A stretch of 64,000 nucleotides of DNA from a virus (IMGVR_UViG_3300021430_000416:18435-82434), one strand, 5' to 3'. Positions 1 to 37,901 are shown, counted from the stretch's first letter. The notes: generated from the letters alone by a model not told the origin. Numbers and translations are program-made.

Positions 1-429
1 GTTGTTGCCGGTACACTGTACGATGACTTGGAAAGAAGAGACTTTACCTTGAACGCATTGGCCAAAGACGAGGATGGAAAAATCATCGATTACTTCAACG
101 GAATGGAAGATTTGAAACGAGGTTACCTACGTACACCGTTAGATTGTAAAATAACATTTAACGATGACCCGCTTCGTATTTTAAGAGCCATTAGATTTTG
201 TATCACCAAAGGATTTTGGATTGGACCACACATGGATGGTGTAATTCAAGATTACGATTATGAAAACAAAATGGGTGTGGTGTCTATTGAGAGAATCAGG
301 GAAGAGTTATATAAATGTTTTAAACATGACACAATTAAAACATTACAAACTTTACACGAATACCCGGCACTTAGAAACTATATTTTCAAAAACAATACCT
401 TATGGTTAAAACCAACACTTGAATTATAA
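1..429 (+). CDS. tRNA nucleotidyltransferase (CCA-adding)/poly(A) polymerase family protein, 3' portion; the 5' end lies upstream of the window
   Basis: Frame 1 is open from nt 1. It contains ERRDFTLNAL, matching the class II nucleotidyltransferase RRDFTINA motif, followed by the LRILRAIRF helix typical of this family. Confidence 0.6.
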   Translation, partial: VVAGTLYDDLERRDFTLNALAKDEDGKIIDYFNGMEDLKRGYLRTPLDCKITFNDDPLRILRAIRFCITKGFWIGPHMDGVIQDYDYENKMGVVSIERIREELYKCFKHDTIKTLQTLHEYPALRNYIFKNNTLWLKPTLEL

Positions 430-902
430 TGAAAAACAAAAAAGAACAACTACAATATAGAATGTACGGTTTAGTACCGTACAATATCAGCCCAATTCAA
501 CAAGGTATTCAATTTGGTCATGCTGTTGTTGAGTATGGTCTGAAACACGGTAAGACCGATGAATACCAAAGATGGGCAAAACACGATAAGACATTCATCA
601 TACTAAATGGTGGAACAACAAATAACTCAGGTTATTTGGATAGTATGGGTACAATGAATAAACATTTAGTAACCCTTCAGGAAAATAAAATACCATTGGC
701 AGTATTCCACGAGCCGGACCTCGGGAATCAATTAACCGGTATTGTTTTCTTGGTGGATGAAAGAGTGTTCAATAAAGACAAATATCCGTTGGATACTTTT
801 GAACCAGACCCTGAAAATTTTTGGACAGAGAAACTTCCTAAAAAAGAATTGAGGAAAATTTTGTTTTTACGAGAATTTTTAGTACAATTTAGATTAGCAT
901 GA
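429..902 (+). CDS. hypothetical protein; possible PTH2-type peptidyl-tRNA hydrolase
   Basis: 157 aa. Start overlaps the upstream stop (TAATG). QQGIQFGHAV and EPDLGNQLTGIVF weakly resemble the PTH2 AAQCxHA and DAGxTQ motifs. Confidence 0.35.
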   Translation: MKNKKEQLQYRMYGLVPYNISPIQQGIQFGHAVVEYGLKHGKTDEYQRWAKHDKTFIILNGGTTNNSGYLDSMGTMNKHLVTLQENKIPLAVFHEPDLGNQLTGIVFLVDERVFNKDKYPLDTFEPDPENFWTEKLPKKELRKILFLREFLVQFRLA

Positions 903-957
903 AAGACGCATTAGGAGATAGAATGAACTTTTTTATTCTATCACCATATTTATAAAT

Positions 958-1725
958 ATGGAAAATAAGAAAGATTACTATGTTTATGTGTATTTAAATC
1001 AATTAAAACCTGGAAAATGGTACTACAAAGATTTAATCTTCAATTATGAACCATTTTATGTTGGTAAGGGTAGAAAACAAAGAGACATCAACCACTTGTG
1101 TCCATATATGTTGAAAAAGAAAACATATAAAAGTTCGGTGATAAAATCTATAAAAAATAGAACCGGTGAAAATCCGATACATTATCGAATATTTGAAAAC
1201 ATTACCAATAAAGAGGCAATTGAAATTGAAATTGATTTTATTAAAACATTCGGAAGAAAAGATATTAATACAGGTATTCTAACTAATTGCACTGACGGTG
1301 GTGATGGTGCAAATAATTTCTCGAAAGAAACAAAAAAGAGAACTGGTAATAAACGTAAGAAAATTTATCAATACTCACTTGACGGAAAATTTTTAAAAGA
1401 ATGGGACGGGGTTACGAATGTTGATGTTGGTTGTGAATCCAACGGAAATATCACCACTTCTATTAAAAGAAATGGAACATGGTGTGGGTACATTTGGTCA
1501 TTTGAAAAAAAAGATGTATTTTTACCCAAAAAAAAGTATCAAATGCCGGTTAAATACAAAGAAATTAAACAAATCGATGTATCAACCGGTCAGGTGATTG
1601 AGGTATTTGATGATGCACTTTCAATTGAAAAGAAATTAAATTTAAGAGAAGGCGCGAGAAATAAGATTTACGAGAGTATTAGAAAAAAAATGAAAACGGC
1701 ATATGGGTTTAAATGGGAAGTTTAG
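958..1725 (+). CDS. GIY-YIG homing endonuclease (seg-like) with a NUMOD/IENR-type C-terminal DNA-binding module
   Basis: YYVYVY...KWYY...YVGKG is the GIY...YIG signature. KIYQYSLDGKFLKEW...W is NUMOD1-like. Confidence 0.75.
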   Translation: MENKKDYYVYVYLNQLKPGKWYYKDLIFNYEPFYVGKGRKQRDINHLCPYMLKKKTYKSSVIKSIKNRTGENPIHYRIFENITNKEAIEIEIDFIKTFGRKDINTGILTNCTDGGDGANNFSKETKKRTGNKRKKIYQYSLDGKFLKEWDGVTNVDVGCESNGNITTSIKRNGTWCGYIWSFEKKDVFLPKKKYQMPVKYKEIKQIDVSTGQVIEVFDDALSIEKKLNLREGARNKIYESIRKKMKTAYGFKWEV

Positions 1726-2542
1726 TAAAGATGCGTTAGGAACACGTCTAAAAACATATTATGAAGATAGGTTTAGATACCATCTTCCACGCAGAACATA
1801 TACCATTATTAGGATTGATGGTAAAGCATTCCACACTTACACGAAAGGTTTAAACAGACCTTTTGATGATGGGTTGATTGAGGATATGGATGAAACAACG
1901 GCATACTTATGTAAGAACATACAAGGGGTTAAGTTTGGTTATGTACAATCAGATGAGATAAGTTTATTACTTACCGACTTTGATGACATATCAACCGACG
2001 CTTGGTTTGATGGTAACTTACAAAAGATGTGTAGTATTGCAGCATCATTGGCAACAGCAAAGTTTAATCAACTAAGAATGATGAGAAAGTGTTGGGAGGG
2101 TAATGACGTTGAGGGATACCTCGACCAAAAAGATTTGGAGAATTTTAAACTGGCAATGTTCGATGCTCGTGTATTTCAAATATCATCACCAATTGAAGTT
2201 GAAAACTACTTTATTTGGAGACAACAAGATGCTACTCGTAACTCAATCTCTTCAGTCGCACAAAGCATGTATTCACCTAAAGAATTACACGGAGTAAAAA
2301 CCGATGAGATGCAAGAGATGATTTTCCAAAAAGGAACTAATTGGAATGATTTCTCACCAAGAAAAAAACGTGGTGGGTTCGTTACAAAGATGTTAATGGT
2401 TAATGGAAAACCAAAACAAGAAAATCAAGAAATCTATATCGAAGATGTGGTTAGGAACAAGTGGATTGGAATTGATTGTCCCGTGTTCACACAAGATAGA
2501 GAATTTTTAAGAAGTGGAATACCGGTACAACATGAAAATTAA
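1703..2542 (+). CDS. Thg1-like protein (tRNA-His guanylyltransferase / 3'-5' polymerase family)
   Basis: YEDRFRYHLPRRTYTIIRIDGKAFHTYT...PFDDGLIEDM...GYVQSDEISLLL matches the Thg1/TLP core, including the metal-binding D and SDE motifs. The 5' end overlaps the GIY-YIG ORF by 23 nt. Confidence 0.65.
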   Translation: MGLNGKFSKDALGTRLKTYYEDRFRYHLPRRTYTIIRIDGKAFHTYTKGLNRPFDDGLIEDMDETTAYLCKNIQGVKFGYVQSDEISLLLTDFDDISTDAWFDGNLQKMCSIAASLATAKFNQLRMMRKCWEGNDVEGYLDQKDLENFKLAMFDARVFQISSPIEVENYFIWRQQDATRNSISSVAQSMYSPKELHGVKTDEMQEMIFQKGTNWNDFSPRKKRGGFVTKMLMVNGKPKQENQEIYIEDVVRNKWIGIDCPVFTQDREFLRSGIPVQHEN

Positions 2543-3641
2543 TATATCCAACGCAACCTTTTCGTCAATTGTTGGGATAGGTCAAAAAGTAAAACGTGCA
2601 GCTAAGGAGAGTGGTGAACAATATTTAGAACTAAATCGTGGTGTAAATGCCGTTACTGAAATTGATTTGTCAAATGTGATGAATCAAGTTGATTTTAATT
2701 CAAAAGAGTTTCAGGTTTACGCACCGAACTTAGGTATCGAATCACTAAGAAAAGAAATTGTTAATGAATACTTTTATTCATCGAAAGATGACCCTGATTT
2801 CATTAACAATATTGCAATCACTCCCGGTGGGATGCCAGCACTTGATTTGGTGATTCAGTTATTGAATGTTGAGAATATATACTTCCCAAAATTTTATTGG
2901 GGGTCTTATTCTAAGATGGCAACAATAAGAAAGAAGTCATTTTCTTTTTATGATTCATTTTCTGATTTGGATTTCTCACAGTTAAATGAGTCGTCTTGTG
3001 TTTTCATTTGTAATCCAAATAACCCAACAGGAATCGCGTTAGACGATGTTTATCTAATGTCAACTATTGAGAGGATTAGTGAAACGGGTGCAATTGTTAT
3101 AGTTGATTGTCCATACAGAAAACTATTCTTTGAGGATGACTTTTTTGATATTGTTTCAAAGTTCCCGAATGTTATAATCACAGAATCATTCTCAAAGTGG
3201 ATTGGTTTATCAGGTTTAAGACTTGGGTTCATCTATTGTTCAAACAAAGATTTTAATTCCGAGTTAAACATTCGTTTACTATATGAATTCAATGCTGTTT
3301 CATCACCATCACAAATGATTGTTGAAAAGGTTATATCAACACCTGAAGGAAAATCCGCACACAATCAATTCAGGATGATTACGGTTGACAATATCACAAA
3401 AAATATTAATTATTTAGTGGACAACAACCTATTGGTAAATGAACTCTATCCTAACAGTAGACCAATTGGTATTTTTGCGGTGATAAACAAATCGGAAGAC
3501 TTTCTTTTCCAACATAAAATAGGTGCAGTTGGTTTAGACAAATTTGTTTACCACGATAAAGATTTTTGGTCATCCTATTCTAGAATTTGCGTATCAGTTC
3601 AACACGAACTATTCAAAAAATTCATAACAAATATAATTTAA
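2514..3641 (+). CDS. class I/II PLP-dependent aminotransferase
   Basis: FICNPNNPTG is the NPxNPTG motif. SFSKWIGLSGLRLGF carries the PLP-lysine SxSK...G.R.G motif. Confidence 0.7.
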   Translation: MEYRYNMKINISNATFSSIVGIGQKVKRAAKESGEQYLELNRGVNAVTEIDLSNVMNQVDFNSKEFQVYAPNLGIESLRKEIVNEYFYSSKDDPDFINNIAITPGGMPALDLVIQLLNVENIYFPKFYWGSYSKMATIRKKSFSFYDSFSDLDFSQLNESSCVFICNPNNPTGIALDDVYLMSTIERISETGAIVIVDCPYRKLFFEDDFFDIVSKFPNVIITESFSKWIGLSGLRLGFIYCSNKDFNSELNIRLLYEFNAVSSPSQMIVEKVISTPEGKSAHNQFRMITVDNITKNINYLVDNNLLVNELYPNSRPIGIFAVINKSEDFLFQHKIGAVGLDKFVYHDKDFWSSYSRICVSVQHELFKKFITNII

Positions 3642-3651
3642 AATAAAAAAA

Positions 3652-3870
3652 ATGCAAACATTATTATTCAACACAACAACAAAAGAAGCTAAACTTTACG
3701 CTGATGAAAAACACGCCTCTAAAATGTTAGAGATGTTCACAAATGTACCTACAGTAAGAATTTCTGAACAAGGATATTACGAGGTAATGAAAAAATTGGA
3801 CGGAGAAGAAAAAAACGTACCGGTTTTGAGAGTACCAATTGCAAACACAAACATGGTAATTGAAAAATAA
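3652..3870 (+). CDS. hypothetical protein
   Basis: 72 aa ORF with tight packing. Confidence 0.4.
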   Translation: MQTLLFNTTTKEAKLYADEKHASKMLEMFTNVPTVRISEQGYYEVMKKLDGEEKNVPVLRVPIANTNMVIEK

Positions 3871-4891
3871 CATGGAAAGAAAATTAGCAAGTGTAAGAAA
3901 AATTTTAAACCTATCACCAATCGAGGGTGCCGATAAAATCGAACTAGTAACAGTTGATGGATGGAAAGTTGTTGTTGCTAAAGATGTCGGTCACAAAGTT
4001 GGTGACTTGGTTATCTATTGTGAGATAGATTCATTTCTCCCGATTAGAGAAGAGTTTGAATTCTTACGTAAGAGTTCATACAAAAAAATGTCAGATGGGA
4101 CCGAAGGATTCAGATTGAAAACAATTAGACTTCGTGGACAAATTTCACAAGGTCTGATTTTACCAATGAGTGTCTTTGGTGATTTTGGATGGACCGCATA
4201 TGAGGGTCTTGATGTTACCGAAAGATTAGGTATCGTAAAATACGAACCACCAATCCCTGCGGAACTTGCTGGTAAGGTTAAAGGTATGTTCCCATCATTC
4301 ATTCCGAAAACGGATGAAGAAAGAATTCAGAACTTCACGAATGAATATGATGGTTGGAAATTACAATCTAAACATCAATTCTACGTAACCGAAAAGTTGG
4401 ATGGTTCATCATCAACATTCTACATTAACAATGGTGAGTTCGGTGTATGTTCACGTAATTTGGAATTACTAGAGACCGAAGGAAACACATTTTGGAAAGT
4501 TGCTCGTGAACTTGACCTTGAAAATAAAATGAAATCTTTAGGTAAAAACATTGCACTACAAGGTGAATTAATTGGTGAAGGTATTCAAGGTAACCCATAT
4601 AAAATAAAGGGACAAACTGTTAAGTTTTACACAGGGTTCGACATTGATGAGTACCGAAGACTTACCTTACCTGAATTCGTTTCATTAATTAGTAGTTTAG
4701 ATTTACAATGTGTACCGATTTTGGATGATAACTTCATGTTACCATCAACAATCGAAGACATGTTGAAATATGCTGATAATAAGTCAGTATTAAATCCCGA
4801 AACTAATCGTGAAGGTGTTGTAGTCCGTTCATTGGATTGTACCATTAGTTTTAAATCAATCAGTAACACATTTTTACTAGAAGAAAAATAA
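3860..4891 (+). CDS. ATP-dependent RNA ligase, DraRnl/Rnl5-like (N-terminal OB-like domain + nucleotidyltransferase domain)
   Basis: TEKLDGSSSTFY is ligase motif I (KxDG). GELIGEGIQGNPY and REGVVVRS are motif III/IV-like. The N-terminal GADKIELVTVDGWKVVVAK resembles the DraRnl OB-like module. Confidence 0.6.
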   Translation: MKNNMERKLASVRKILNLSPIEGADKIELVTVDGWKVVVAKDVGHKVGDLVIYCEIDSFLPIREEFEFLRKSSYKKMSDGTEGFRLKTIRLRGQISQGLILPMSVFGDFGWTAYEGLDVTERLGIVKYEPPIPAELAGKVKGMFPSFIPKTDEERIQNFTNEYDGWKLQSKHQFYVTEKLDGSSSTFYINNGEFGVCSRNLELLETEGNTFWKVARELDLENKMKSLGKNIALQGELIGEGIQGNPYKIKGQTVKFYTGFDIDEYRRLTLPEFVSLISSLDLQCVPILDDNFMLPSTIEDMLKYADNKSVLNPETNREGVVVRSLDCTISFKSISNTFLLEEK

Positions 4892-4892
4892 G

Positions 4893-6806
4893 ATGTCAAA
4901 ATTTACTCCAAGTAAGTATCAAAAAGAAATATTCAACTTCATATTAAAAGATGATAAGAATGCGGTTATCTCTGCGGTTGCCGGTAGTGGAAAAACAACC
5001 ACATTATTAAAAGCATTGGATATTATTTCTGATGATAAATCAGTTTTGTTTCTTGCATTTAATAAAAGTATTGCAGAAGAATTAAGTAAACGAGTTCCAC
5101 AAGATAAGAATAACATTTTGGTTAAGACTGTCCATGGTTACGGATACGGTATTCTTAGACAGAGAAACGACCCAAAGATAGATGATAAAAAGTATCGTAA
5201 ATTACTTTGGAGTGTAATTCATCACCTTAATGGTAAAGATGAAAATACAATACAAACTTATGGTTTTGATGAAAAACATAAGAAGTACATTAAGGAAATA
5301 TCAAAACTATTACCGGACGAAAATACAGATGCAAATAAATTTGTAACAGATGTTCTTAGTCTTTGTAATTTAGCTAGACTACATTTAATTAATTTTGATA
5401 TCAAACCAATTGGTGTTGGTGAGATTAATAAACTAGCACAAATACATTCAGTTAGTAATGAAGATAATGAATCTACCGTTGCTTGGTATCTTTCAAATTT
5501 AGGGATTTATTATGATAGGGTAATCGACTATACCGATATGGTGTCATTACCCATCATATTAAATTTGGATTGTGAGAAATACGATTTTGTATTTATTGAT
5601 GAGTGTCAGGATTTGAACACATGTCAGAGAATCTTGATGCAAAAATCAATCAAACCTGATGGTGGTAGATTCATTGCGGTTGGTGACCCGAAACAAGCGA
5701 TTTATGCATTTGCTGGTGCCGACCACGAATCATTCCAAAAACTAAAAGGTATTCCAAACACAATAGAATTACCACTTTCATTTACGTATCGTGTTGCGCC
5801 ACAGATATTGAATTTGGTTAAACACATTAATCCCGCAATTGTTGCTCACTCAAAAAACAAATCGGGTAAAGTTATAGACAACTTCTCATACAAAGATATC
5901 CAAGATGGTGACATGGTTTTGTGTAGAAACACATTCCCAATTGTTGCATTGTGTATTAAATTATTGAGTGAGGGTAAGAAATCTTACATCATCGGTTCTG
6001 ATATTGGTTTATCGTTGAAGAACATGATTTCAGGTTGTAAAAGAGAAAGAGAAGAATTCAACATGAACAATGTCCTTTGTCGATTAATGAAGGATAAGGA
6101 GAAGATGATTGAAAAAATCATGGCCAATCACAACATGAAAAAGAGTGAGGCGATGGAAGATAGTCAGGTTATCATTTTTAGTGAGAGAATACTGGCAATC
6201 GAATCAATTTCAAATGGTATTGACGACCCGAATGTTGTTATTGAAAAAATAGACACAATATTCTCGGATAAGGATAAATCCGGTATCTGTTTAAGTACGA
6301 TACACAAATCCAAAGGTCTTGAGGCGGATAGAGTGTTTATTATTCACCAAGATTTAATCCCATCAAAATATGCATCATTACCTTGGGAATTAGAACAAGA
6401 AAAGAACTTGGAGTATGTTGCTTACACTAGAGCTAAAACCATATTAGGTTTTGTAAATGACTTTGATGCGTTTAAGTCCCATAAAACAAGAGACATCGAC
6501 ACAACAAAAGTTAAGATTAGTAAATACGTCGGTTCTCCAAACATGAAGATGTATTTAACACTGACGGTTGTTGATAAAAGAACAGTTAACGGAATGTACG
6601 GTGAAACCACCGTATTTGATTTGGTGGATGATTCGGGTAACATCTTTTCTAAATTTGGTAATATTGATGCAAGTTACCTCGACGGTGATATTATGGGAAG
6701 TGAAGTTACCATTAATTCTAAGGTTTCTTTTTACGGTATCATAAAAGAACACATGGAATATAGAGGTAACAAAATCAACAAGTTAGGTAAGATATCACAC
6801 TACTAA
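4893..6806 (+). CDS. UvrD/PcrA-like SF1 DNA helicase with a C-terminal extra domain
   Basis: AVAGSGKTTTL (Walker A), FIDECQD (motif II), GDPKQAIYAF, LPLSFTYRV, STIHKSKGLEADRVFII (motif VI). Confidence 0.8.
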   Translation: MSKFTPSKYQKEIFNFILKDDKNAVISAVAGSGKTTTLLKALDIISDDKSVLFLAFNKSIAEELSKRVPQDKNNILVKTVHGYGYGILRQRNDPKIDDKKYRKLLWSVIHHLNGKDENTIQTYGFDEKHKKYIKEISKLLPDENTDANKFVTDVLSLCNLARLHLINFDIKPIGVGEINKLAQIHSVSNEDNESTVAWYLSNLGIYYDRVIDYTDMVSLPIILNLDCEKYDFVFIDECQDLNTCQRILMQKSIKPDGGRFIAVGDPKQAIYAFAGADHESFQKLKGIPNTIELPLSFTYRVAPQILNLVKHINPAIVAHSKNKSGKVIDNFSYKDIQDGDMVLCRNTFPIVALCIKLLSEGKKSYIIGSDIGLSLKNMISGCKREREEFNMNNVLCRLMKDKEKMIEKIMANHNMKKSEAMEDSQVIIFSERILAIESISNGIDDPNVVIEKIDTIFSDKDKSGICLSTIHKSKGLEADRVFIIHQDLIPSKYASLPWELEQEKNLEYVAYTRAKTILGFVNDFDAFKSHKTRDIDTTKVKISKYVGSPNMKMYLTLTVVDKRTVNGMYGETTVFDLVDDSGNIFSKFGNIDASYLDGDIMGSEVTINSKVSFYGIIKEHMEYRGNKINKLGKISHY

Positions 6807-6817
6807 ACTAAAATTTT

Positions 6818-6848
6818 TTTGGATATCACGAAATTTTGAGTATCTTTG
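6818..6848 (+). promoter_or_regulatory. Bacteroidetes-type promoter (-33 TTTGG, -7 TATCTTTG)
   Basis: TTTGG, 18 nt spacer, then TATCTTTG, about 25 nt upstream of the ATG at 6874. Confidence 0.5.
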
Positions 6849-6873
6849 TTTTTGTAAAATCAAAAATAAGGAT

Positions 6874-7476
6874 ATGATAGACAACATTGATATAGTAAAG
6901 TCACTCTTAAACTTTGAAAAGGAGGGTGACTTTTATATGCTGTACGTTTTCAAAAGAAAGAAAGACCAACCTGAAGGTGAGAGAGATAATCACCAATCGG
7001 TTAGAACCATCAAGACATATTGTGTTGAGAGTGTGGAGTATCTTGAGAAAAGATACGAAGAGATTAAACAACTATGTGAGATGTTTAAAGCTCGTGCATA
7101 TATTCATGTTCAAAAGCAAAATCATTATGATGTTTCTTTGGATATGATGGTCACACTTGCGGAAAGAATTCGTTGTGGTCAACACAAACAACAACACATA
7201 TTTGATTCTGTTGTTGGTCAAATAAAGACTCACGAAAAGAGATGGATTGTTGATTTGGATACCAAGGATGAAAGTGAATTGTTAAGAATGACAAAAGTAA
7301 TAAATGTAACTCGTCCTGAAGGTGATAAGATTGAATGTATCATACCAACAAAGAATGGTTACCACTTTATAACCAAAAGATTCGATGTGATGCAATTTAA
7401 GAACGTGTATCCTGATGTTGATATTGCTAAAAAGAACCCAACATTATTATATTATCCAACATCGTTGGATAGATAG
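6874..7476 (+). CDS. hypothetical protein
   Basis: 200 aa ORF downstream of the promoter. Confidence 0.5.
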   Translation: MIDNIDIVKSLLNFEKEGDFYMLYVFKRKKDQPEGERDNHQSVRTIKTYCVESVEYLEKRYEEIKQLCEMFKARAYIHVQKQNHYDVSLDMMVTLAERIRCGQHKQQHIFDSVVGQIKTHEKRWIVDLDTKDESELLRMTKVINVTRPEGDKIECIIPTKNGYHFITKRFDVMQFKNVYPDVDIAKKNPTLLYYPTSLDR

Positions 7477-7524
7477 TCTTTAAGGTTTTTCTTTTGGATA
7501 AGGAGAATTTTTTAGAAAGGTTTA

Positions 7525-9444: not shown

Positions 9445-10947
9445 ATGTTTAGACCAAATTCACTTTTCTACACTGACGGATACAAAATCGGTCACAAAAG
9501 AATGTTAGCTAAAGGTACAACACGTTTGTACGGAACATGGATTCCACGTAGCATCAAGTACGCACCAAAGGGTGTTAAGAAAATTGTATCATTCGGACAA
9601 CAACTTGTTGTTAAGTGGTTACACGATGAGTTCCAAGAGAACTTCTTTAATCAACCAATTGAAGTTGCTGAAAGATTCGGAAAAGATATGTCAATGTATC
9701 TTGGTATGGATTATGATGCATCACACTTCGTTGAGTTACACAAATTAGGTTACTTACCTATCCGTATCAAATCATTACCTGAAGGTATTGAAACAAATCC
9801 AAATGTTCCTCACATGACATTCATTAATACCGTTGATGGATTTGCGTGGTTGACATTATATTTGGAAACCATCATTAGTTCATTGTCATGGAAACCTTCA
9901 ACCTCAGCAACAATTGCTCTACAATACAGACGTAATGTTGTTGAATGGGTGATGAAAACCGACCCAGCTAACGCTTGGTTAATCCCTTTCCTTTGTCATG
10001 ACTTCTCGGCTCGTGGATTAAGTCCATGGGATATGTTATCAAGTGGTCTTGGACACGCATCATCATTCTTGGGTTCTGACACAATCATTTGTATCCCCGG
10101 TGCTCGTTACTTCTACAACGAACCTGAAGACCAAGTTTCAATCTACTCTGTGAATGCGTCAGAACACTCAGTATCGACAACTAAAATCTTTACTGTTGGT
10201 GAACAACAAATGATTGCTGATTGGTTGGAAGAGTTCCCTAAAGGAATCCTGTCAATTGTGTCCGACACATTTGACTTGTGGAAGTTGATTACCGAATACT
10301 TACCGGCAAACAAAGAAGCTATTATGGCTCGTGACGGTAAATTGGTAATTCGTCCTGACTCAGGTGACCCTGTAGATATTATCTGCGGAAAACCTGATGA
10401 ATCTGGTGTTTTCAATGACCAAGACTACGCAAAGGCATCTAAAAGTGGGTCACCTGAGCAAAAGGGTGTTATCGAATTACTTTGGGACATCTTTGGTGGT
10501 ACAATCAACGAACAAGGTTACAAAGTTCTTGACCCACACATCGGAGCAATTTATGGTGATTCAATCACATTAGACCGTCAATTAGAAATCTACAAAAGAT
10601 TAGAAGCAAAAGGATTTGCATCAACAAACATCGTGTTAGGTGTTGGTTCATTCACTTACCAAATGAATACCCGTGACACATTAGGTTTCGCAGCCAAAGG
10701 TGCTTGGTTTGAGGTTGAGGAGAACAATACCAAAGTTGGTTACGATATCTACAAAGACCCTGTAACTGATGATGGTACTAAGAAGTCTTTGAAAGGTTTG
10801 ATTTGTGTTACTGAAAACCATGAGGTGTTAACACAATGTACACCTGAACAAGAATCACAAGGTATTCTTCAAACGATTTATGAGAATGGACAGTTCCATA
10901 ATCAAATAACTTTAACTGAGGTTCGTGAACGTTTAAACAAACTTTAA
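9445..10947 (+). CDS. nadV: nicotinamide phosphoribosyltransferase family protein (NadV/NamPT homolog; alternatively a NARP1 Namat-type enzyme)
   Basis: FYTDGYKIGH (TDSYK motif), YSVNASEHS, IVSDTFD, VIRPDSGDP and IYKDPV all match conserved NAMPT blocks. Confidence 0.9.
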   Translation: MFRPNSLFYTDGYKIGHKRMLAKGTTRLYGTWIPRSIKYAPKGVKKIVSFGQQLVVKWLHDEFQENFFNQPIEVAERFGKDMSMYLGMDYDASHFVELHKLGYLPIRIKSLPEGIETNPNVPHMTFINTVDGFAWLTLYLETIISSLSWKPSTSATIALQYRRNVVEWVMKTDPANAWLIPFLCHDFSARGLSPWDMLSSGLGHASSFLGSDTIICIPGARYFYNEPEDQVSIYSVNASEHSVSTTKIFTVGEQQMIADWLEEFPKGILSIVSDTFDLWKLITEYLPANKEAIMARDGKLVIRPDSGDPVDIICGKPDESGVFNDQDYAKASKSGSPEQKGVIELLWDIFGGTINEQGYKVLDPHIGAIYGDSITLDRQLEIYKRLEAKGFASTNIVLGVGSFTYQMNTRDTLGFAAKGAWFEVEENNTKVGYDIYKDPVTDDGTKKSLKGLICVTENHEVLTQCTPEQESQGILQTIYENGQFHNQITLTEVRERLNKL

Positions 10948-12060: not shown

Positions 12061-13431
12061 ATGAGTACCCAATTACATAGAGAACTGAAATTATCGAGCG
12101 AAAAATATGTTTCATACGATGAATATTTGGGTGCACACTATACATTTGGTACCGCAAATGCCAAAGAGTTGAAACAATACCTATTGGATAATCTCGAATC
12201 ACAAGGTATTAATCCTGACGAATTTAATCGTGGGGGTGGTGATGATATTTCACAAAACCCACCTGTTGAGATTTATGAATACCAATTGTTTTTTCTATTG
12301 AGAAAAGAGAATGGTGATTTAATTCTTCTTGATGGTTTTAGACGTTTGTTGTGGTACAATTCTCCGAATCATAGAATTAATGTTAGAGTTTACGATGAGG
12401 GCGAATTAAGTAATCAACAAATAATGAAGTTGTTGATTTATTTGAACCACTTTAAATTTTATGGTAGTAGTGGAAAATATTTTGACCGTGGATTTGCACT
12501 TGGAATGCACACAATTTTTGGTTTGAACATACCAAAATACTATAACACTTTTGATGCATATCTCACGTTGAGTGATACTGAAAAAAAATATTGGAGTGAA
12601 AGTACTACCGACACAAAAGAGAATCTTAGTGTAAAGGAGAGAATGTTGAACCCAATGTTTATTTCCGACATGAAGTTCATTGAGTCTTTACTCGGTACTG
12701 ATGTGATGATTACCCCAATTATGGGAGCATTAATCCATAACACCAGACTTCAACACCCTGACAAAGAATTTTCAAGTGAGTTCTTTTTGAATAAGGTGAA
12801 TGAAAATGAAATCTTGAAAAAACTGCATGAGAAATTTCATAAAGTCGGTGATGGACACGGTGTAGATTCTCAGAAAATTGTCAATCAAATCGTACCTCTT
12901 TACAAAAACATTTTCAACGAAATGTTGGGTGGTGAAATTACATTAACATACGCCGAGAAAAAGGACGAAGTTAAAAAATTGGTTGAGCAATTGAAGAAGG
13001 ATAAAGCTCATACCAAACTAACTGGTAGTAAGAGCGCGTACCTAATGGAATGGGTTATGGAAGATAGAATCAAAAATAACCAACCAATCAATTTTAAATG
13101 TGTTATTCCCCCAAAGGAACTTGACCCACATCGTTGGAATCGAAATGGTGAAAATAATGACCCATTGGAACACGGTTTATTGAAACACGAGGTGAAAGTC
13201 CTTGGTAAAACGAGAGGGAAATCATATGGTTCATCAGAATTAAAAATTGGTTTTACCGATGAAGAAGGTCGTGAATTTATATTCCGACACAACTACGGAG
13301 ATTGGCACAGTTACGGTAAAAAATATACAACAATAGAAGGTGGTGGAATACCATGTATACGATATGATGTCGACCTTTTTGTTGATATCACCAAATCGGA
13401 AATTGAAGAAAAAGACAAAAACAGATATTAA
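12061..13431 (+). CDS. hypothetical protein with a ParB/Srx-like motif
   Basis: 456 aa. ILLDGFRRLL resembles the ParB nuclease-domain DGxxR motif. Weak. Confidence 0.5.
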   Translation: MSTQLHRELKLSSEKYVSYDEYLGAHYTFGTANAKELKQYLLDNLESQGINPDEFNRGGGDDISQNPPVEIYEYQLFFLLRKENGDLILLDGFRRLLWYNSPNHRINVRVYDEGELSNQQIMKLLIYLNHFKFYGSSGKYFDRGFALGMHTIFGLNIPKYYNTFDAYLTLSDTEKKYWSESTTDTKENLSVKERMLNPMFISDMKFIESLLGTDVMITPIMGALIHNTRLQHPDKEFSSEFFLNKVNENEILKKLHEKFHKVGDGHGVDSQKIVNQIVPLYKNIFNEMLGGEITLTYAEKKDEVKKLVEQLKKDKAHTKLTGSKSAYLMEWVMEDRIKNNQPINFKCVIPPKELDPHRWNRNGENNDPLEHGLLKHEVKVLGKTRGKSYGSSELKIGFTDEEGREFIFRHNYGDWHSYGKKYTTIEGGGIPCIRYDVDLFVDITKSEIEEKDKNRY

Positions 13432-13434
13432 AAT

Positions 13435-14358
13435 ATGGCAGAAGTATTAAACTTAGTCAACCCAAATGACACCTTATCTTTCAAGTATGAGATAAGTAGA
13501 TTCCCCGATGGGCAACAATCGTTACGATTGATTGAAGAGGGGTATAACACCTTTCACTCACTCAAAGATAATCCATACGGAATAACAATCAAATCACGTT
13601 TAAATGATTTCCGTGATTTGGAAATTATCATATGTGCAACACAAGCACTTAAAGAAGTTGGTGTCCAAAGAATCAGATTATATATTCCATATTGTACCGG
13701 AGCAAGAAGTGACCGTAAATTTATGGAGGGTGGAATTAATTATGTGAAACACGTAATCGCACCAATCATCAATTCACAAGGTTATGAACAGGTGATAATT
13801 ATGGACCCACATTCGGATGTTCTTGAAGCTTGCATCAACAACTTCGTTAAGGTTGATAACATTAGACTTGCGGAATTCACATTCAAAGATTATTTCTTAT
13901 CAAAAGGATTTGAAACTTGGTCAAATAGTAACTTTCAAAATGTTCGTTTGGTGTCACCCGATGCTGGCGCATTGAAGAAAGTGTTCCATGTTGCTGATAA
14001 ATTTGGTTATAAAAACGATATTGTTATTGCATCAAAACATAGAAATCTTGAAACTGGTAAAATTGATTTTACCAACGTACCTATGTCATTAAATGATGCG
14101 GATAAGGATGTGTTTATTTTCGACGACATTGGGGATGGTTTTGGTACATTTATAAACATCGCAAATGAAATTGAAGAAAAAAGAAAATTATCAAGTGATG
14201 TTCATCCATCACAACACGGAAAAAATTATTTGGTTGTCACACATTCAATACAAGAGATTGGTTTAAAAAGAGCATTAAATGTTTTTGATAAAATCTACAC
14301 CACAAATTCTATTAACGATTGGGAAATAGAGAATGTTGTTGTTTTAAATGTCTTTTAA
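13435..14358 (+). CDS. prs: ribose-phosphate pyrophosphokinase (PRPP synthetase) family protein, divergent (Prs or ADPR-pyrophosphokinase-like)
   Basis: YIPYCTGARSDRK matches PRS VIPYfGYARQDRK. IIMDPHSD, VSPDAGALKK and DDIGDGFGT match the PRPP-binding loop. The N-terminal FPDGQ region is divergent. Confidence 0.75.
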   Translation: MAEVLNLVNPNDTLSFKYEISRFPDGQQSLRLIEEGYNTFHSLKDNPYGITIKSRLNDFRDLEIIICATQALKEVGVQRIRLYIPYCTGARSDRKFMEGGINYVKHVIAPIINSQGYEQVIIMDPHSDVLEACINNFVKVDNIRLAEFTFKDYFLSKGFETWSNSNFQNVRLVSPDAGALKKVFHVADKFGYKNDIVIASKHRNLETGKIDFTNVPMSLNDADKDVFIFDDIGDGFGTFINIANEIEEKRKLSSDVHPSQHGKNYLVVTHSIQEIGLKRALNVFDKIYTTNSINDWEIENVVVLNVF

Positions 14359-15175
14359 AAAGTTCTTCCATATTTATGATAAATATGCGACCATGAAAGA
14401 ACTTAAAAAACCACAAATTAAATGGACAGAAGAAAAAAAACAATATCTAATTGAAAATTACCCATATGGTGATAAAAAAAAGATGTGTTTGGAATTAGGG
14501 TGTACATACAAATCTTTAAAAAGTATGGCAAGATTGTTAGGTGTAAAATCACTAACTGATAATAAACATTATAAATTAAAAACATTGATTGATGATAATG
14601 TTTATAACAATTACTGGTGGGGATACGTCTTGGCAGATGGCCATATAAATGAAAAAAATCAATTAAGTGTGGTTATTAAAGAATCTGATTCACATCATTT
14701 AAAAAAATTATCAGATTATTTAGGTGTAAATTTAAAATGTAGAAAAATTAAAACCGAATACTCTGAAGGTGTTTATTGTAACTTTACATGTCAAGATGTG
14801 ACATATGGTAAAATATTAAAAGAAAATTTGGGGGTAACTAAAAATAAAACATATGAATGTTTCGATTTTACTTGGATTAACACCGAAAAAAAATTTTTAA
14901 GTGTTTTTGCAGGATTTTATGATGGTGATGGGTGTTTAACATTGTCTAAAAACAAGACACCGGTAACAATGAAAATTGAATGTCACTACAATTGGTTCAT
15001 TTTTTTGGAGTTTTGTGGTTTGATGTTGAAAAAATATTATAACATAGAGTCAACGGTATATATCACAACAAAGGGTTCGTCGGCATTAAGGATATATGGT
15101 AAAAAAAACATAAATCTTTTATATGAAAAATGTAAAAAAAATAATTTACCTTTGTTGGAAAGAAAATGGAATTAA
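14348..15175 (+). CDS. LAGLIDADG homing endonuclease (two-motif, monomeric type)
   Basis: WWGYVLADGHI and FAGFYDGDGCLTL are two LAGLIDADG-like motifs about 100 aa apart. Confidence 0.6.
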   Translation: MSFKKFFHIYDKYATMKELKKPQIKWTEEKKQYLIENYPYGDKKKMCLELGCTYKSLKSMARLLGVKSLTDNKHYKLKTLIDDNVYNNYWWGYVLADGHINEKNQLSVVIKESDSHHLKKLSDYLGVNLKCRKIKTEYSEGVYCNFTCQDVTYGKILKENLGVTKNKTYECFDFTWINTEKKFLSVFAGFYDGDGCLTLSKNKTPVTMKIECHYNWFIFLEFCGLMLKKYYNIESTVYITTKGSSALRIYGKKNINLLYEKCKKNNLPLLERKWN

Positions 15176-15328: not shown

Positions 15329-15808
15329 ATGAAGACAACTAACAAACATGTGTTTTTTTGGAATGGTATATATTCCCAATGGCACAAAGCACCAATGACA
15401 ATCGATGGTGTTACATACAATTGTTGTGAACAGTATATGATGCATCAAAAAGCACTCCTTTTTGGTGATGTGGAAATTGCTCGACAAATTTTAAGAGTGA
15501 GCGACCCAAGAGAACAAAAAGAATTAGGTAGAAAAGTTAAAGGTTTCAATAAGGAGAAGTGGGATAAGGCTTGTGTTGGTATTGTTTACAAAGGTAACTA
15601 CGCAAAGTTCTCACAAAACGAAGATTTGAAAACCGAACTTCTAAACACAGGTAACAGAATTCCTGTTGAGGCATCACCCGTTGATTACATTTGGGGTATT
15701 GGAATGCATGAGGACGATAACGGTGTGGAGAACCCAGCAAATTGGAAAGGTACTAACCTTTTAGGTTGGTCAATTATGTTGGTACGTAACGAATTATCAA
15801 ATGAGTAA
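15329..15808 (+). CDS. NADAR (YbiA-like, DUF1768) domain protein
   Basis: FFW..SQWH, DGVTYNCCEQYMMHQKALLFGD, LGRKVKGF..EKW, KFSQNEDLKTELLNTGNRIPVEASPVDYIWGIG match the NADAR conserved blocks. Confidence 0.7.
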   Translation: MKTTNKHVFFWNGIYSQWHKAPMTIDGVTYNCCEQYMMHQKALLFGDVEIARQILRVSDPREQKELGRKVKGFNKEKWDKACVGIVYKGNYAKFSQNEDLKTELLNTGNRIPVEASPVDYIWGIGMHEDDNGVENPANWKGTNLLGWSIMLVRNELSNE

Positions 15809-16154: not shown

Positions 16155-16476
16155 GGTTTCACATGTCAACACACAACAAGGATTGTGGTACAACATGAAT
16201 GGCATCTTCACCGGGTTGATTCATAATGAATTCAATTTCTGTAAGAACAATAGTTTAGCAATGGATTTTGACGATACTATTGTGGGTTATCTATCGGCAA
16301 CACCAACACTTGATGAACTGTTTAATTGGTTCACAAAAGAAGACATTACAAAGTTACAGGAACATGATTATTATATTCATGTTTACGAATCTGACGACTA
16401 CAAGTTTTATGACAGATTCCAACACTTTGTAATCAACAAAGAATCATCCAAATTATTAGAAAAAATAGTATTATAA
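16129..16476 (+). CDS. hypothetical protein
   Basis: 115 aa ORF. Confidence 0.45.
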   Translation: MNTSKKFYRVSHVNTQQGLWYNMNGIFTGLIHNEFNFCKNNSLAMDFDDTIVGYLSATPTLDELFNWFTKEDITKLQEHDYYIHVYESDDYKFYDRFQHFVINKESSKLLEKIVL

Positions 16477-16913
16477 TGAAAGAATATTTCTATAAAAATC
16501 CGGAATCCATTCCGTACCTTGAGAGGTTAGAACAAGAATGGAGACAATATGGTAAGATAATCATCGCTTGCGATTATGACGATACCATTTCACCATGGAA
16601 AATGACTAACACAGATTTCAAACGAGTTTTTGATGTTCTGAATGTGGCAAAACAAACAGGTGCATATGTTGTAATCTTCACGGCATGTAAGGAAGATAGA
16701 TATCCTGAGATAACAAAATATTGTTTAGACAATGGTTTGGAGATTGACGGTATCAACACCACACCGATTGATTTACCATATGGTAACAACAAAAAGATTT
16801 ACGCAAACATCTTCATTGATGATAGGGCAGGTCTGAACGAATCATTAAACATACTCGAATTGGCTATGTACCGTATTCGTGGTAGTAAACAATTAAACAA
16901 TTTTGATTTTTAA
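16476..16913 (+). CDS. HAD-superfamily phosphatase-like protein
   Basis: IIIACDYDDTIS contains the DxDxT motif I, and the downstream VVIFTACKED resembles motif II. Confidence 0.45.
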   Translation: MKEYFYKNPESIPYLERLEQEWRQYGKIIIACDYDDTISPWKMTNTDFKRVFDVLNVAKQTGAYVVIFTACKEDRYPEITKYCLDNGLEIDGINTTPIDLPYGNNKKIYANIFIDDRAGLNESLNILELAMYRIRGSKQLNNFDF

Positions 16914-17373
16914 AATTATGGCAATATTTAAACCACCACACAACATTGCACATAGGAATACAAGAATGAAATCTGTATTTTTAGCCGGTTCAATTGAAAT
17001 GGGTAAAGCAGAAGATTGGCAAACAAATCTTTCAAATTTTTTCAACGACAATGGTTGGAATGTTTTTAACCCTCGTAGAGATGATTGGGATTCATCTTGG
17101 ACTCAGGATTTTGAAAACCCACAGTTTTACCAACAAGTAAGTTGGGAACTCAACGCATTAAGTCAATCCGATTTAATCATAATGTATTTTGCACCGGGAA
17201 CGCAGTCACCTATTTCATTATTGGAGATGGGTCTTTATGCAAATTCAGAAAAACTTCATGTGGTTTGTCCCGATGGTTTTTGGAGAAAAGGGAATGTGGA
17301 AATCGTATGTAATCATTACAACATTCCATTAACAAATACAATTGATGAATTATTAGAAAAATTAATACCATGA
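16903..17373 (+). CDS. nucleoside 2-deoxyribosyltransferase-like protein (start possibly at the internal MKSVFLAGS)
   Basis: VFLAGSIEMGKAEDW...NVFNP...SPISLLEMGLYANSEKLHVVCPDGFW matches the Nuc_deoxyrib_tr fold signature, including the catalytic Glu region. Confidence 0.6.
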   Translation: MIFKIMAIFKPPHNIAHRNTRMKSVFLAGSIEMGKAEDWQTNLSNFFNDNGWNVFNPRRDDWDSSWTQDFENPQFYQQVSWELNALSQSDLIIMYFAPGTQSPISLLEMGLYANSEKLHVVCPDGFWRKGNVEIVCNHYNIPLTNTIDELLEKLIP

Positions 17374-27180: not shown

Positions 27181-27765
27181 GTGTCAGAAAGGAGAAATAT
27201 TATGAACAAATCACAATGGTGTATAAATCAACACCACAACACAAATCATTACTACGACACGTACCTTCCGTATGAATTTCATTTACGAATGGTTCACCAA
27301 GTGGCGATGGATTTCAAACATCTTTTAGATGACACAAAAGACTACTTTACCGGTGAACGATACCGAGGACCCAATCAAGACCAAGTTACACTACAAGATG
27401 CTTGTTTAAATGCAACATGGGGTCACGACCTTATTGAAGATTGTCGTGTTTCATACAATGATGTTAAGAGTCATTTAGGTCAAGAAGCTGCCGATATTAT
27501 CTATGCAGTTACCAATGAGAAAGGTAAAACAAGGTCTGAACGTGCTAATGACAAATACTATGAGGGAATTAGAAATACTCCCGGTGCTGTATTTGTTAAG
27601 TTATGTGACCGAATTGCCAACGTACAATATTCAAAGATGACCAAGAGTCGTATGTTTGAAATGTACAAAAAAGAAAACGAACATTTTATCAAATCTTTGG
27701 GTGGACATCCACAACACGAACTCCATTCAATGTTTGATTACCTTATCAACCTCTTCAACGATTAA
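27181..27765 (+). CDS. HD-domain phosphohydrolase
   Basis: H..H...WGHDLIED and VKLCDRIANV are the HD and downstream D motifs. Confidence 0.65.
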   Translation: MSERRNIMNKSQWCINQHHNTNHYYDTYLPYEFHLRMVHQVAMDFKHLLDDTKDYFTGERYRGPNQDQVTLQDACLNATWGHDLIEDCRVSYNDVKSHLGQEAADIIYAVTNEKGKTRSERANDKYYEGIRNTPGAVFVKLCDRIANVQYSKMTKSRMFEMYKKENEHFIKSLGGHPQHELHSMFDYLINLFND

Positions 27766-33624: not shown

Positions 33625-34345
33625 CCCCGATTGTCGGTCAGTCCTAAACACGGTGTTCGAGTCACCATAAAAACGGTAGTGTTGCGGATGGTAGGTTCGA
33701 GTCCTATGTCGGGGGCAAACCTCAGAAGTAATTAATCTGAGACTGAGTGATTCGAAGCACTCGATTGGTTATGGTGTATTGGGCACAGTAGAACGGAGTA
33801 CCGACAGTTCACATGAGGACGGGGAAAGGGGATACGGGATTGGGTTCGACTCCCTTTAATCAACTAAAGACCCCACAATTGACGGACGTACTCATCTGTC
33901 ATGGTGTGTGAACCCGGCATGAAGGCTCCGGGGCTATGGGGGAGGCTACACAAAAAGTGAAACTCACATAATCTCTAATAAACGGGGTTAACTGATTTGG
34001 GGAAGTTCAATCAGGTGTGTTGGAATCGAAACCATGAGTTCCTCATTATGGGTTGAGAGGGTTAGGGACTTTAATTAGTCGTGTTGTAATCCACAAGTCG
34101 TAAAGATACTGAACAACTTTACGGTACACACTCTTCTTCCGAGTGAGACTCCCACGTAACTTTGGGGGTAGGGTGAAGATGTTCTGAGGGTATCCCTGAA
34201 AGATGGGAGAGAGTAGAGACCTATCGTGGATGGTTACTAAGTCTTAACGAATCTTGAGACTATCGGTAGGGATATTATGTCGCCAAATATAACTTTCAAA
34301 AGGTTCTCCCAAAATGGCGTGGGGATGGTTCAGGACCTTTTTTTA
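33625..34345 (+). ncRNA. candidate large structured non-coding RNA (class unknown) with an embedded tRNA-like T-arm/acceptor motif
   Basis: About 720 nt with no ORF of 60 aa or more on either strand. Locally much more G+C-rich than the flanks. Contains several GTTCGAGTC / GTTCGACTC T-loop hairpins and many G-rich helices, and ends in a T7 run at about 34338. Confidence 0.4.
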
Positions 34346-37883: not shown

Positions 37884-37901
37884 ACAATAAAAAAATAAAC
37901 C

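Follow-up and report, generated by a model that had tools for sequence, protein, structure and literature searches.

A compact phage gene string predicted to act on tRNA and RNA ends

The repair of RNA ends by phages has been predicted before. Anantharaman, Iyer and Aravind (2010) linked bacterial Thg1 genes to polynucleotide kinase, Macro and RNA ligase genes, recorded Thg1 in phage 201phi2-1 and put forward RNA repair as a counter to host defences (PMC2904730). The RNA-repair repertoire of jumbo phages described by Iyer et al. (2021) comprises a CCA-adding enzyme, Thg1 ("sporadically present"), PTH2, RNA ligases and a Swiss-army-knife HAD protein (PMC7824862). No experimental test of this repair-kit prediction was found in the literature for any phage. 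The present analysis concerns a 64,000-nucleotide stretch of viral DNA (IMGVR_UViG_3300021430_000416:18435-82434, here called the window), the first 4.9 kb of which contain eight contiguous open reading frames (ORFs) on one strand. Four predicted tRNA/RNA-end genes lie in this string, encoding a CCA-type nucleotidyltransferase, a PTH2-like protein, a Thg1-like protein (TLP) and an Rnl5 ligase. An earlier reading made without database searches (the sequence-only reading) had proposed a multi-enzyme tRNA repair suite at this locus, an idea that is in essence a rediscovery of the published prediction (PMC2904730, PMC7824862).

The string has the same families (CCA-type, Thg1, PTH2 and ATP-dependent RNA ligase) and the same proposed purpose as the published sets, whereas the HAD Swiss-army-knife phosphatase and Macro are shared only through the window's relatives. 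It differs from the sets of PMC7824862 in being a single compact string whose start and stop codons overlap and in which an aminotransferase gene is embedded, in having an Rnl5 ligase where that review treats Rnl1, Rnl2 and RtcB, and in having a truncated nucleotidyltransferase of 245 amino acids (aa) and a PTH2-like protein too divergent for Pfam. With T4 Pnkp and Rnl1, which repair tRNA-Lys cleaved by PrrC, it shares the proposed multi-enzyme restoration of tRNA and a final ATP-dependent ligation of 3'-OH to 5'-PO4 ends. Family scans covered about 45 of the window's ORFs (not all), and the genome extends past the window; unlike in the T4 system, no Pnkp-type kinase/phosphatase was found among the ORFs scanned, the ligase is a duplex-nick sealer rather than an Rnl1, and end-rebuilding polymerases (TLP and CCA-type) and a PTH2-like hydrolase are present instead. 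This substitution points to damage at the acceptor end or stem and not to anticodon-loop cleavage.

Only one 43-nt match was returned when window positions 1..7500 were compared by megablast with deposited phages (INPHARED), so the phage is not in INPHARED. A close relative was available as L163, a 36.9-kb NCBI metagenome contig that is colinear with the window at 80-89% nucleotide identity. The genes of the string, and the helicase gene that follows it, are as follows.

1..429, + strand: class II tRNA-nucleotidyltransferase/poly(A)-polymerase family protein, C-terminal 142 codons (PF01743, phrog_24229)
429..902, + strand: ORF2, divergent PTH2-fold protein of 157 aa, putative (peptidyl/aminoacyl)-tRNA ester hydrolase (structural evidence)
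899..955, + strand: remnant of the original Thg1-like start, an 18-codon dead end (MKDALGDRMNFFILSPYL, then stop; alignment with L163 and reading of the sequence)
958..1725, + strand: free-standing GIY-YIG homing endonuclease gene (PF22945 LEM-3-like GIY-YIG, E 3e-9)
1703..2542, + strand: bacterial-type TLP of 279 aa, predicted templated 3'-5' nucleotidyltransferase (PF04446, phrog_4717)
2532..3641, + strand: class I/II pyridoxal phosphate (PLP)-dependent aminotransferase, 369 aa from ATG 2532, the ORF opening at GTG 2514 (PF00155, E 3.7e-26)
3652..3870, + strand: orf72, a small ORF of 72 aa with no family match
3872..4891, + strand: Rnl5 (DraRnl/NgrRnl)-type ATP-dependent RNA ligase, predicted to seal nicks, 339 aa from ATG 3872 (PF21189, PF09414, TIGR02306)
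4893..6806, + strand: UvrD/Rep-type superfamily 1 helicase, 637 aa (PF00580, PF13361, phrog_1967)

Families and catalytic motifs of the four enzymes

The four gene families named in the sequence-only reading (class II tRNA nucleotidyltransferase, PTH2-like, Thg1-like and DraRnl-type ligase) were all recovered in place, and the enzyme families, the intact catalytic motifs of the nucleotidyltransferase, TLP and ligase, the packing of the genes and their recurrent co-location were observed directly. For the TLP, the PF04446 Thg1 score of 95 bits (E 4.3e-27) exceeded the cutoff of 29.2, and phrog_4717 matched at E 1.5e-83, in agreement with the claim of a Thg1-like protein. The best PDB match was the Bacillus thuringiensis TLP (BtTLP; 4kgk, E 8e-55, residues 10-232), whereas genuine tRNA-His guanylyltransferases matched far more weakly (Candida CaThg1, 2.8e-9; human, 5e-4). 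The metal-binding carboxylates D39 (IRIDG) and D84-E85 (QSDEIS) are kept and align identically to BtTLP and CaThg1. In the comparison with BtTLP (4kgk/4kgm), the RIDG and SDE motifs were identical and HINNLYN was absent, the phage protein reading DATRNSISS where CaThg1 has DCHINNLYN. By its closeness to BtTLP and its missing HINNLYN motif it is a bacterial-type TLP and not a genuine tRNA-His guanylyltransferase; the phage protein is a predicted templated 3'-5' polymerase. Characterised TLPs are described as repairing 5'-truncated tRNA by templated 3'-5' addition (PMC4820378).

The phage TLP departs from BtTLP in an insertion of ~20 residues near 125-150 and a C-terminal extension of ~45 residues, and from bacterial and archaeal TLPs in being phage-encoded and in having a 5' end remodelled by a homing-endonuclease insertion. 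Homologs were present in 164 of 50,697 deposited phage records, 46 of them from Bacillus phages, and have their own PHROG family. A phage Thg1-like polymerase, which the sequence-only reading had called unusual, is therefore uncommon but documented (PMC2904730, PMC7824862).

The ligase ORF opens at TTG 3860; its real start is probably ATG 3872, which comes one nt past the orf72 stop and gives 339 aa as in relatives. An N-terminal OB module (PF21189, PHA02142; residues 9-103, E 3.7e-36) precedes an RNA_ligase domain (PF09414; residues 173-326, E 1.5e-22), and the equivalog model TIGR02306 RNA_lig_DRB0094 scored 204.1 bits against a cutoff of 151.15. NgrRnl (5cot) matched at E 4e-73, with ligase residues 7-341 colinear with NgrRnl residues 5-336. 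The sequence EKLDGSS aligned to VKLDGSS of NgrRnl (K170), which places the motif I lysine at K179 in TTG numbering and K175 in ATG numbering, and motifs III, IV and V also aligned, as LQGELIGEGIQGN (GE.IGE), NREGVVV (REG) and SFKSISN (FK). The DraRnl-type ligase with an OB-like module and KLDG motif thus stood as first described, lysine included. NgrRnl K170 is required and is the adenylylation nucleophile (PMC4408790).

The phage ligase shares the full-length colinearity, OB and nucleotidyltransferase domains and KLDG motif I of NgrRnl and DraRnl, and differs in being encoded by a phage. Homologs in phages were known by 2015 at the latest (PMC4408790) and were present in 345 of the 50,697 deposited records. 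Rnl5 enzymes seal 3'-OH/5'-PO4 nicks in duplexes with an RNA 3'-OH strand and are feeble on single strands, loop breaks being the province of Rnl1 and Rnl4 (PMC4408790). Nick sealing is accordingly the activity predicted from family membership, and an Rnl5-type enzyme is not an Rnl1-like anticodon-loop sealer. The Rnl1-like part given to the ligase in healing cleaved tRNA was weakened by this, since Rnl5 seals duplex nicks and not anticodon-loop breaks (PMC4408790).

The product of 1..429 matched the PF01743 PolyA_pol head (E 1.7e-11) and phrog_24229 tRNA nucleotidyltransferase (E 3e-35), and contains motif D (ERRDFTLNA) and motif E (DDPLRILRAIRF). About 103 codons of the N-terminus fall outside the window. 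A look-up of the exact ORF2 protein gave a 901-bp contig only, and the upstream part, which the sequence-only reading had lacked, was read from L163, reached via its 96%-identical aminotransferase. The L163 protein is 245 aa long, is 77% identical to the window's product and carries in its N-terminus motif A (GGKVRD...DID) and the rest of the head. The window's product was also 61% identical to residues 103-248 of a 249-aa protein from a further related locus, L005. NCBIfam CCA models matched 1..429 partially, with equivalog scores far under their cutoffs, as the window has no more than a fragment of what is itself a short protein.

The L163 protein aligned to the head and neck only of CCA enzymes of 400-420 aa, and the relatives of 245-249 aa aligned only to residues ~58-246 of the 420-aa 6ibp. 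Nearly all of the best 150 representatives at 50% identity were 220-260 aa long, with the same C-terminal end as the query. These alignments identify the nucleotidyltransferase as a ~245-aa protein made up of head and neck, with neither a body nor a tail domain. Compared with class II CCA enzymes (6ibp, 1miv), head, neck and motifs D and E are shared, as is motif A in the L163 relative, whereas the phage protein stops at about residue 245; it also has no counterpart of the HD phosphohydrolase domain of the multifunctional Cca of Vibrio phage Va1. With body and tail missing, CCA-adding activity is not assured, and "CCA-adder" is a family-level label, CCA-, CC- and A-adding and poly(A) activities being inseparable by sequence. 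Of the claimed CCA-adding enzyme, the class II family and RRDFTxNA motif were upheld; the protein is a short form and the activity cannot be assumed. Elsewhere in the window, 27181..27765 encodes an HD-domain-like protein (phrog_990 "metal-dependent phosphohydrolase", E 3e-23; PF13328 weak), which could stand in for the HD phosphohydrolase domain of full-length phage and bacterial Cca. Short head-and-neck proteins of this kind make up most of the nearest 150 clusters and form a large, uncharacterised, mostly viral family.

ORF2 has the alpha-beta fold of PTH2/Bit1 proteins, and its membership of the PTH2 fold is solid. It had no Pfam or NCBIfam match, and PF01981 did not match ORF2 or 42 members of its family at E values up to 5. 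The link to that model is transitive: a homolog in Vibrio phage 1.081.O, 29% identical to ORF2, passed PF01981 (24.2 bits, cutoff 23), and remote homologs in SSBI34 (E 0.003) and RsoM2USA (E 0.03) matched weakly. Fold and transitive link together bear out the possible PTH2-like gene noted downstream of the CCA-type gene. When profiles of the family were compared with the PDB, nothing was found with the A2 profile, and the broader A5 profile gave MjPth2 as top match, but only at E 0.33. In that weak alignment H31 corresponds to QxxHA, a W is shared, the invariant E95 corresponds to the Asp of DAG and T103 to LTAV.

Identity to archaeal and eukaryal PTH2/Bit1 (1wn2, 2zv3, 1xty, 1q7s) is 11-16%. 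ORF2 differs from these proteins in the lack of a direct Pfam match, in a C-terminal extension of about 40 residues, in a Gln or variable residue at the "GK" Lys position across its family and in an invariant Glu in place of Asp. It is a putative tRNA ester hydrolase, and that it has the same catalysis as PTH2 is likewise putative. Homologs numbered 4170, almost all unnamed; with >4000 homologs and no Pfam model, this too is a large, uncharacterised and mostly viral family.

Gene packing, the inserted endonuclease and neighbouring genes

The packing of the genes is operon-like. In the window the nucleotidyltransferase stop and the ORF2 start overlap as TAATG; in L163 the PTH2-like and TLP genes overlap as ATGA, the TLP and aminotransferase genes overlap by 11 nt, and 1-nt gaps lie on either side of the ligase gene. 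A scan of the + strand found no terminator-like site between the genes of the string, the only one in that region being inside the aminotransferase gene. The order in L163 is YqeY, orf104, the 245-aa nucleotidyltransferase, PTH2-like, TLP, aminotransferase, orf72, Rnl5, UvrD and orf199, with NAMPT and NADAR further on and no GIY-YIG gene. YqeY, a tRNA-related domain, is thus two genes upstream of the nucleotidyltransferase. Judged from this comparison, L163 shows the ancestral layout. In L005, genes for a calcineurin-like phosphoesterase and for HAD_SAK_2 ("Swiss Army Knife RNA repair" HAD) lie directly upstream of the short nucleotidyltransferase gene, and Rnl5 is one small ORF downstream of the TLP gene.

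The GIY-YIG gene, taken in the sequence-only reading for an unexplained passenger, is by alignment with L163 a homing-endonuclease insertion within the first codons of the TLP gene. The cassette spans about 928..1783 and is missing from L163 and most related loci; the blastn break points are at window 927/1784 and L163 9239/9271. The remnant at 899..955 begins MKDALGDRMN; its ATG and the ORF2 stop share the sequence ATGA, an overlap seen also in L163, where the gene is uninterrupted. The cassette carries a diverged replacement for Thg1 codons 1-27, and the new ATG at 1703 overlaps the endonuclease stop, so that the invaded gene remains whole. The TLP is probably functional, because its alignment to BtTLP holds from residue 10. 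Other indels of the accessory region were a LAGLIDADG homing endonuclease gene (14348..15175) and a 456-aa ORF (12061..13431), both missing from L163. Two large paralogs (42425..43906 and 44433..46505; phrog_20046), each with a GIY-YIG catalytic domain, lie in the region of strongest GC skew.

The aminotransferase gene overlaps the end of the TLP gene, and its product has an SFSK PLP-lysine motif at residue 225. Homologs are 369 aa long, the L163 copy being 96% identical. A 72%-identical homolog occurs on a Bacteroidota-type contig (L164) amid SusC/SusD and type IX secretion (T9SS) genes, and for this reason the gene was probably captured from a Bacteroidota host. The enzyme is rare in deposited phages, which gave four weak partial matches only. 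In a 308-kb phage contig (L167) a 62%-identical homolog lies between Rnl5 and HAD_SAK_2 genes; the gene is therefore not the random passenger it had seemed, as it recurs beside Rnl5 and HAD_SAK_2 in another phage lineage. A further homolog, on L165 (ENA ERZ19043295 scaffold_4, 777 kb), is beside genes for two aminoacyl-tRNA synthetases and glutamine synthetase. Around 295.8-312.9 kb this scaffold also has LAGLIDADG, Dam methylase, cREC and KTI12-like kinase genes and looks like a phage; if viral, it would be among the largest phage genomes.

Shine-Dalgarno motifs are missing upstream of the window's genes, which together with the Bacteroidota-like aminotransferase suggests that the host is probably a member of the Bacteroidota. 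Promoter-like sites were fewer in a consensus scan than in shuffled sequence, as would be expected of such a host, since Bacteroidota promoters differ from the consensus.

orf72 was considered as a conserved partner of the aminotransferase and set aside: it is 82% identical in L163, the only place where a similar ORF was seen, and no similarity to it could be detected in the small ORFs that take its place in L005, L165 and L167. The UvrD gene lies 1 nt past the ligase gene. It adjoins Rnl5 in L163 as well, but is between the CCA-type and PTH2-like genes in L005, and it is uncertain whether it is part of the repair set. Beyond it, orf200 (6874..7476) has 6644 homologs, the top 120 clusters being 79-96% identical; it lies repeatedly near the short nucleotidyltransferase gene in relatives, matches only phrog_14949 (unknown function) and shows apparent DxD and GYH motifs. 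It was rejected as a missing healing enzyme, as its AlphaFold2 (AF2) model was poor (pLDDT 59.9) and gave no Foldseek match below E 0.79.

Recurrence in related viral loci

Relatives of the TLP and of the PTH2-like protein were surveyed at 75 IMG/VR loci (+/- 8 kb) and 80 loci, respectively. The 75 TLP loci included PTH2-like genes in 13 cases, CCA-type genes in 9 and Rnl5 in 5, and the 80 PTH2-like loci included CCA-type genes in 23 and TLP genes in 12. For neighbour clustering, which used all ORFs without prior labels, the loci were dereplicated to 63 (TLP) and 57 (PTH2-like), or ~120 in total. HAD_SAK_2 was the commonest TLP neighbour (11 of 63), followed by PTH2-like (10), NAMPT (10), Prs (9), Macro-like (9), YqeY (9) and NADAR (7). 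Neighbours of the PTH2-like gene were Prs (15 of 57), NAMPT, Macro-like, short nucleotidyltransferase and PARP genes (14 each) and an Rnl2-like RNA ligase gene (12).

These genes form a recurrent block of variable order: Prs, PTH2-like, Macro-like, (HAD_SAK), (NADAR), unk191, TLP, (YqeY), NAMPT, NDT and (short nucleotidyltransferase). The genes for the RNA-end enzymes are therefore part of a shuffled accessory region found throughout the lineage, where they are interleaved with NAD/ADP-ribose genes, and the compact arrangement of the window, L163 and L005 is one variant of it. Homologs of YqeY, HAD_SAK_2, Macro-like, PARP and Rnl2-like proteins were not found by tblastn in the 64-kb window.

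The order nucleotidyltransferase then PTH2-like is kept across unrelated phage families at about 30% identity. It recurs in Vibrio phage Va1, where the genes overlap and the enzyme is full-length with an HD domain, and in the Vequintavirinae SSBI34, PBES02 and Hena1, with an RlaP (PF10127) nucleotidyltransferase nearby; it did not recur in Schizotequatrovirus-like phages. In Cronobacter phage PBES02, Erwinia phage Hena1 and Salmonella phage SSBI34 the cluster consists of the nucleotidyltransferase, the PTH2-like "hydrolase", a few small ORFs and RlaP, and looks like an unremarked RNA-repair module of rV5-like phages.

The window itself has a NAMPT/NAPRTase-family gene (9445..10947; PF04095, E 4.5e-33), a ribose-phosphate pyrophosphokinase-like (Prs) gene (13435..14358; phrog_619, E 1e-53) and a NADAR domain gene (15329..15808; PF08719, E 2e-52). 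NAMPT, Prs and NADAR look like a set for NAD+ reconstitution and ADP-ribose reversal, and their presence nearby fits a counter-defence setting. In dozens of related viral loci these three genes are interspersed among RNA-repair genes.

Possible functions and significance

Three tRNA-like elements and a HAD-like gene elsewhere in the window bear on function. The tRNA-like elements are as follows.

37807..37884, + strand: tRNA-like, Rfam tRNA match (41 bits), ending GACC-A-CAA, CCA not encoded
52281..52359, - strand: tRNA-like, acceptor and T arms only, no Rfam or default ARAGORN call
33625..33716, + strand: ARAGORN tRNA-Ser, no encoded CCA, acceptor and T arms with an aberrant remainder

All three have good acceptor and T arms (GGTTCGAxTCC) and aberrant anticodon arms, that of 37807..37884 having 8 extra nucleotides, and none encodes CCA. 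Rfam searches at E values up to 1 gave no match for 52281..52359 or 33625..33716. Of the two CCA-less tRNA-like genes of the sequence-only reading, that at 37806..37883 therefore stood, with an Rfam match and no CCA, and that at 52281..52359 had no call from either program. The calls made by ARAGORN with introns and relaxed thresholds were mostly spurious (kilobase "introns") and were discarded. The elements may be non-canonical tRNAs, or tRNA-like decoys or substrates.

The product of 16476..16913, which the sequence-only reading had offered as an end-healing 3'-phosphatase, is HAD-like, with DYDDT (DxDxT) and FIDDR motifs. It had no Pfam match, including PF18143, at E values up to 0.01; it matched phrog_1238 "phosphoheptose isomerase", and BLASTP against the L005 HAD_SAK_2 gave E 0.088. 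Without a PF18143 match and unrelated to the HAD_SAK_2 proteins of the relatives, it was rejected as an RNA-repair phosphatase: the DxDxT motif is present, but the protein is not of the RNA-repair HAD_SAK_2 type. Its gene overlaps a nucleoside 2-deoxyribosyltransferase-like gene (PF15891, E 2e-35; pair 16476..17373), which suggests nucleotide metabolism, and for the pair nucleotide metabolism or base modification is more likely than RNA repair.

The reading that we tentatively favour, and which may well prove wrong, is that the cluster is a co-expressed kit for maintaining the ends of tRNA or structured RNA, used as counter-defence within a larger accessory region. In this account the division of labour follows the biochemistry of the families, and the substrates, the sequence of steps and the use in counter-defence are inferred. 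The PTH2-fold protein would strip an acyl, peptidyl or other ester-linked group off the 3' end, the short class II nucleotidyltransferase would rebuild the 3'-terminal nucleotides (CCA or part of it), the TLP would restore missing 5' stem nucleotides by templated 3'-5' addition with the opposite strand as template, and the Rnl5 ligase would close 3'-OH/5'-PO4 nicks inside duplex regions. Given that Rnl5 requires 3'-OH and 5'-PO4 ends and that the window ORFs scanned gave no polynucleotide kinase, lesions left by exonucleolytic trimming or by metal-dependent nucleases of the PIN or Toprim type would be more likely substrates, and the 2',3'-cyclic-phosphate/5'-OH ends left by PrrC- and colicin-type anticodon nucleases less likely ones. 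Relatives add HAD_SAK_2 and calcineurin-like phosphoesterases, which would heal 3' ends. That the enzymes form a functionally linked set is suggested by start and stop codons that overlap in both the window and L163, by recurrent co-location with HAD_SAK_2, YqeY and the Rnl2-like ligase in about 120 related viral loci, and by the nucleotidyltransferase to PTH2-like order of distant cultured phages. Of the repair suite first proposed, the enzyme identities stood and a linked set was consistent with these observations; loop sealing, the HAD phosphatase and assured CCA addition did not stand.

Several observations weigh against this account. The family scans of about 45 window ORFs (not all ORFs) revealed neither a kinase nor a 2',3'-cyclic phosphodiesterase. 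The body and tail domains, which bind the tRNA elbow in full-length enzymes of about 370-450 aa, are absent from the nucleotidyltransferase, and in the weak profile alignment the lysine position of the PTH2 "GK" motif is Q24 in ORF2 and variable across its family. Mutagenesis of S. solfataricus Pth2 reportedly assigned catalysis to the Lys of the GK motif and the Asp of DAG. The aminotransferase, without an obvious RNA role, lies inside the string. The association is also loose, Rnl5 being present at only 5/75 TLP loci and CCA-type genes at 9/75, and NAMPT, Prs, Macro-like and NADAR genes neighbour the TLP gene about as often as tRNA enzymes do, so that part of the clustering is due to synteny within the lineage. 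Literature searches gave no experimental study of a phage TLP, a short phage CCA-type enzyme or this PTH2-like family.

That last pattern of neighbours also favours the view that there is no common pathway, which we regard as somewhat unlikely: the genes would be neighbours in a recombination-shuffled accessory (early-gene) block, each with its own target. Rnl5 and the UvrD-like helicase might, for example, seal RNA-ended DNA nicks (primer or ribo-patch repair), the short nucleotidyltransferase might be a host-takeover or toxic RNA-tailing enzyme, and the aminotransferase a metabolic auxiliary gene. The syntenic block does recur in variable order with NAD/ADP-ribose genes as frequent as tRNA enzymes, UvrD directly follows Rnl5 in both the window and L163, Rnl5 joins RNA-OH to pDNA and loss of DraRnl radiation-sensitises Deinococcus (PMC4408790, PMC5397189), and a CCA-enzyme-like protein of Klebsiella phage fHe-Kpn01 is toxic to its host (PMC7291057). 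Against separate targets are the start/stop overlaps that join the three genes from the nucleotidyltransferase to the TLP, the gene order (nucleotidyltransferase, then PTH2-like) that unrelated phage families share at about 30% identity, and the rank of the RNA-repair-specific HAD_SAK_2 as the commonest TLP neighbour. An offensive use, in which the ends of host tRNAs would be remodelled or inactivated to favour phage translation, is very improbable. It would suit a short nucleotidyltransferase without the tRNA-measuring body and tail domains, the toxicity of the phage CCA-like protein (PMC7291057) and the finding that tRNA 3'-extending nucleotidyltransferases such as MenT can be toxins (PMC11541572); the motif D/E core, however, resembles genuine CCA/A-adding enzymes and not MenT, and the companions (the ligase and TLP, and the repair phosphatase of relatives) are restorative.

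Housekeeping of the phage's own tRNA-like transcripts, without counter-defence, is unlikely. The nucleotidyltransferase would add CCA to phage tRNA(-like) molecules, the TLP would fix or extend 5' ends (for example G-1 on a tRNA-His encoded elsewhere) and the PTH2-like protein would recycle peptidyl-tRNA during intense late translation. CCA-less tRNA(-like) genes are indeed present in the window (37807..37884 and 33625..33716), many tRNA-rich phages encode CCA enzymes and PTH2 (PMC7824862), and XacN1, with 56 tRNA genes, also encodes Thg1. The window, however, has one to three tRNA-like genes in 64 kb, none of them tRNA-His, and their acceptor stems are fully paired, so that no need for 5' editing is visible. 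Hosts already supply CCA-adding and Pth activities. Rnl5 and the HAD_SAK_2 phosphatase of relatives, moreover, have no role in ordinary tRNA maturation, and the closest solved relative is a TLP and not a G-1-adding Thg1.

A more specific version of the counter-defence reading, a two-strand acceptor-stem repair pathway made up of the nucleotidyltransferase, PTH2-like protein, TLP and Rnl5 with YqeY upstream, is quite unlikely as it stands. In such a pathway a 3' end that is blocked or acylated would be cleared by the PTH2-like protein, and the 3' strand would be rebuilt by the minimal nucleotidyltransferase, for which YqeY or the PTH2-like protein might supply tRNA binding in trans. The TLP would rebuild the 5' strand in reverse against the 3' template, and Rnl5 would close the resulting nick. 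If true, it would be the first physiological role for bacterial-type TLPs and Rnl5 ligases, and would imply that Bacteroidota have an undiscovered class of host defence directed at the acceptor stem of tRNA.

The repair-kit concept is already published, and the value of the locus is that of a good test case rather than of a new principle. Its useful specifics are the compact operon form, the truncated nucleotidyltransferase family, the divergent PTH2-like family and the recurrent nucleotidyltransferase to PTH2-like pair, whose order across unrelated phage groups suggests that these have a 3'-end pathway in common. In vitro, both bacterial-type TLPs and Rnl5 ligases have been characterised well, and the phage operon, in which they are coupled to a CCA-type enzyme and a PTH2-like hydrolase, offers a genetically tractable setting in which to find their natural substrates. 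The cluster could also reveal which host tRNA-targeting defences its enzymes answer.

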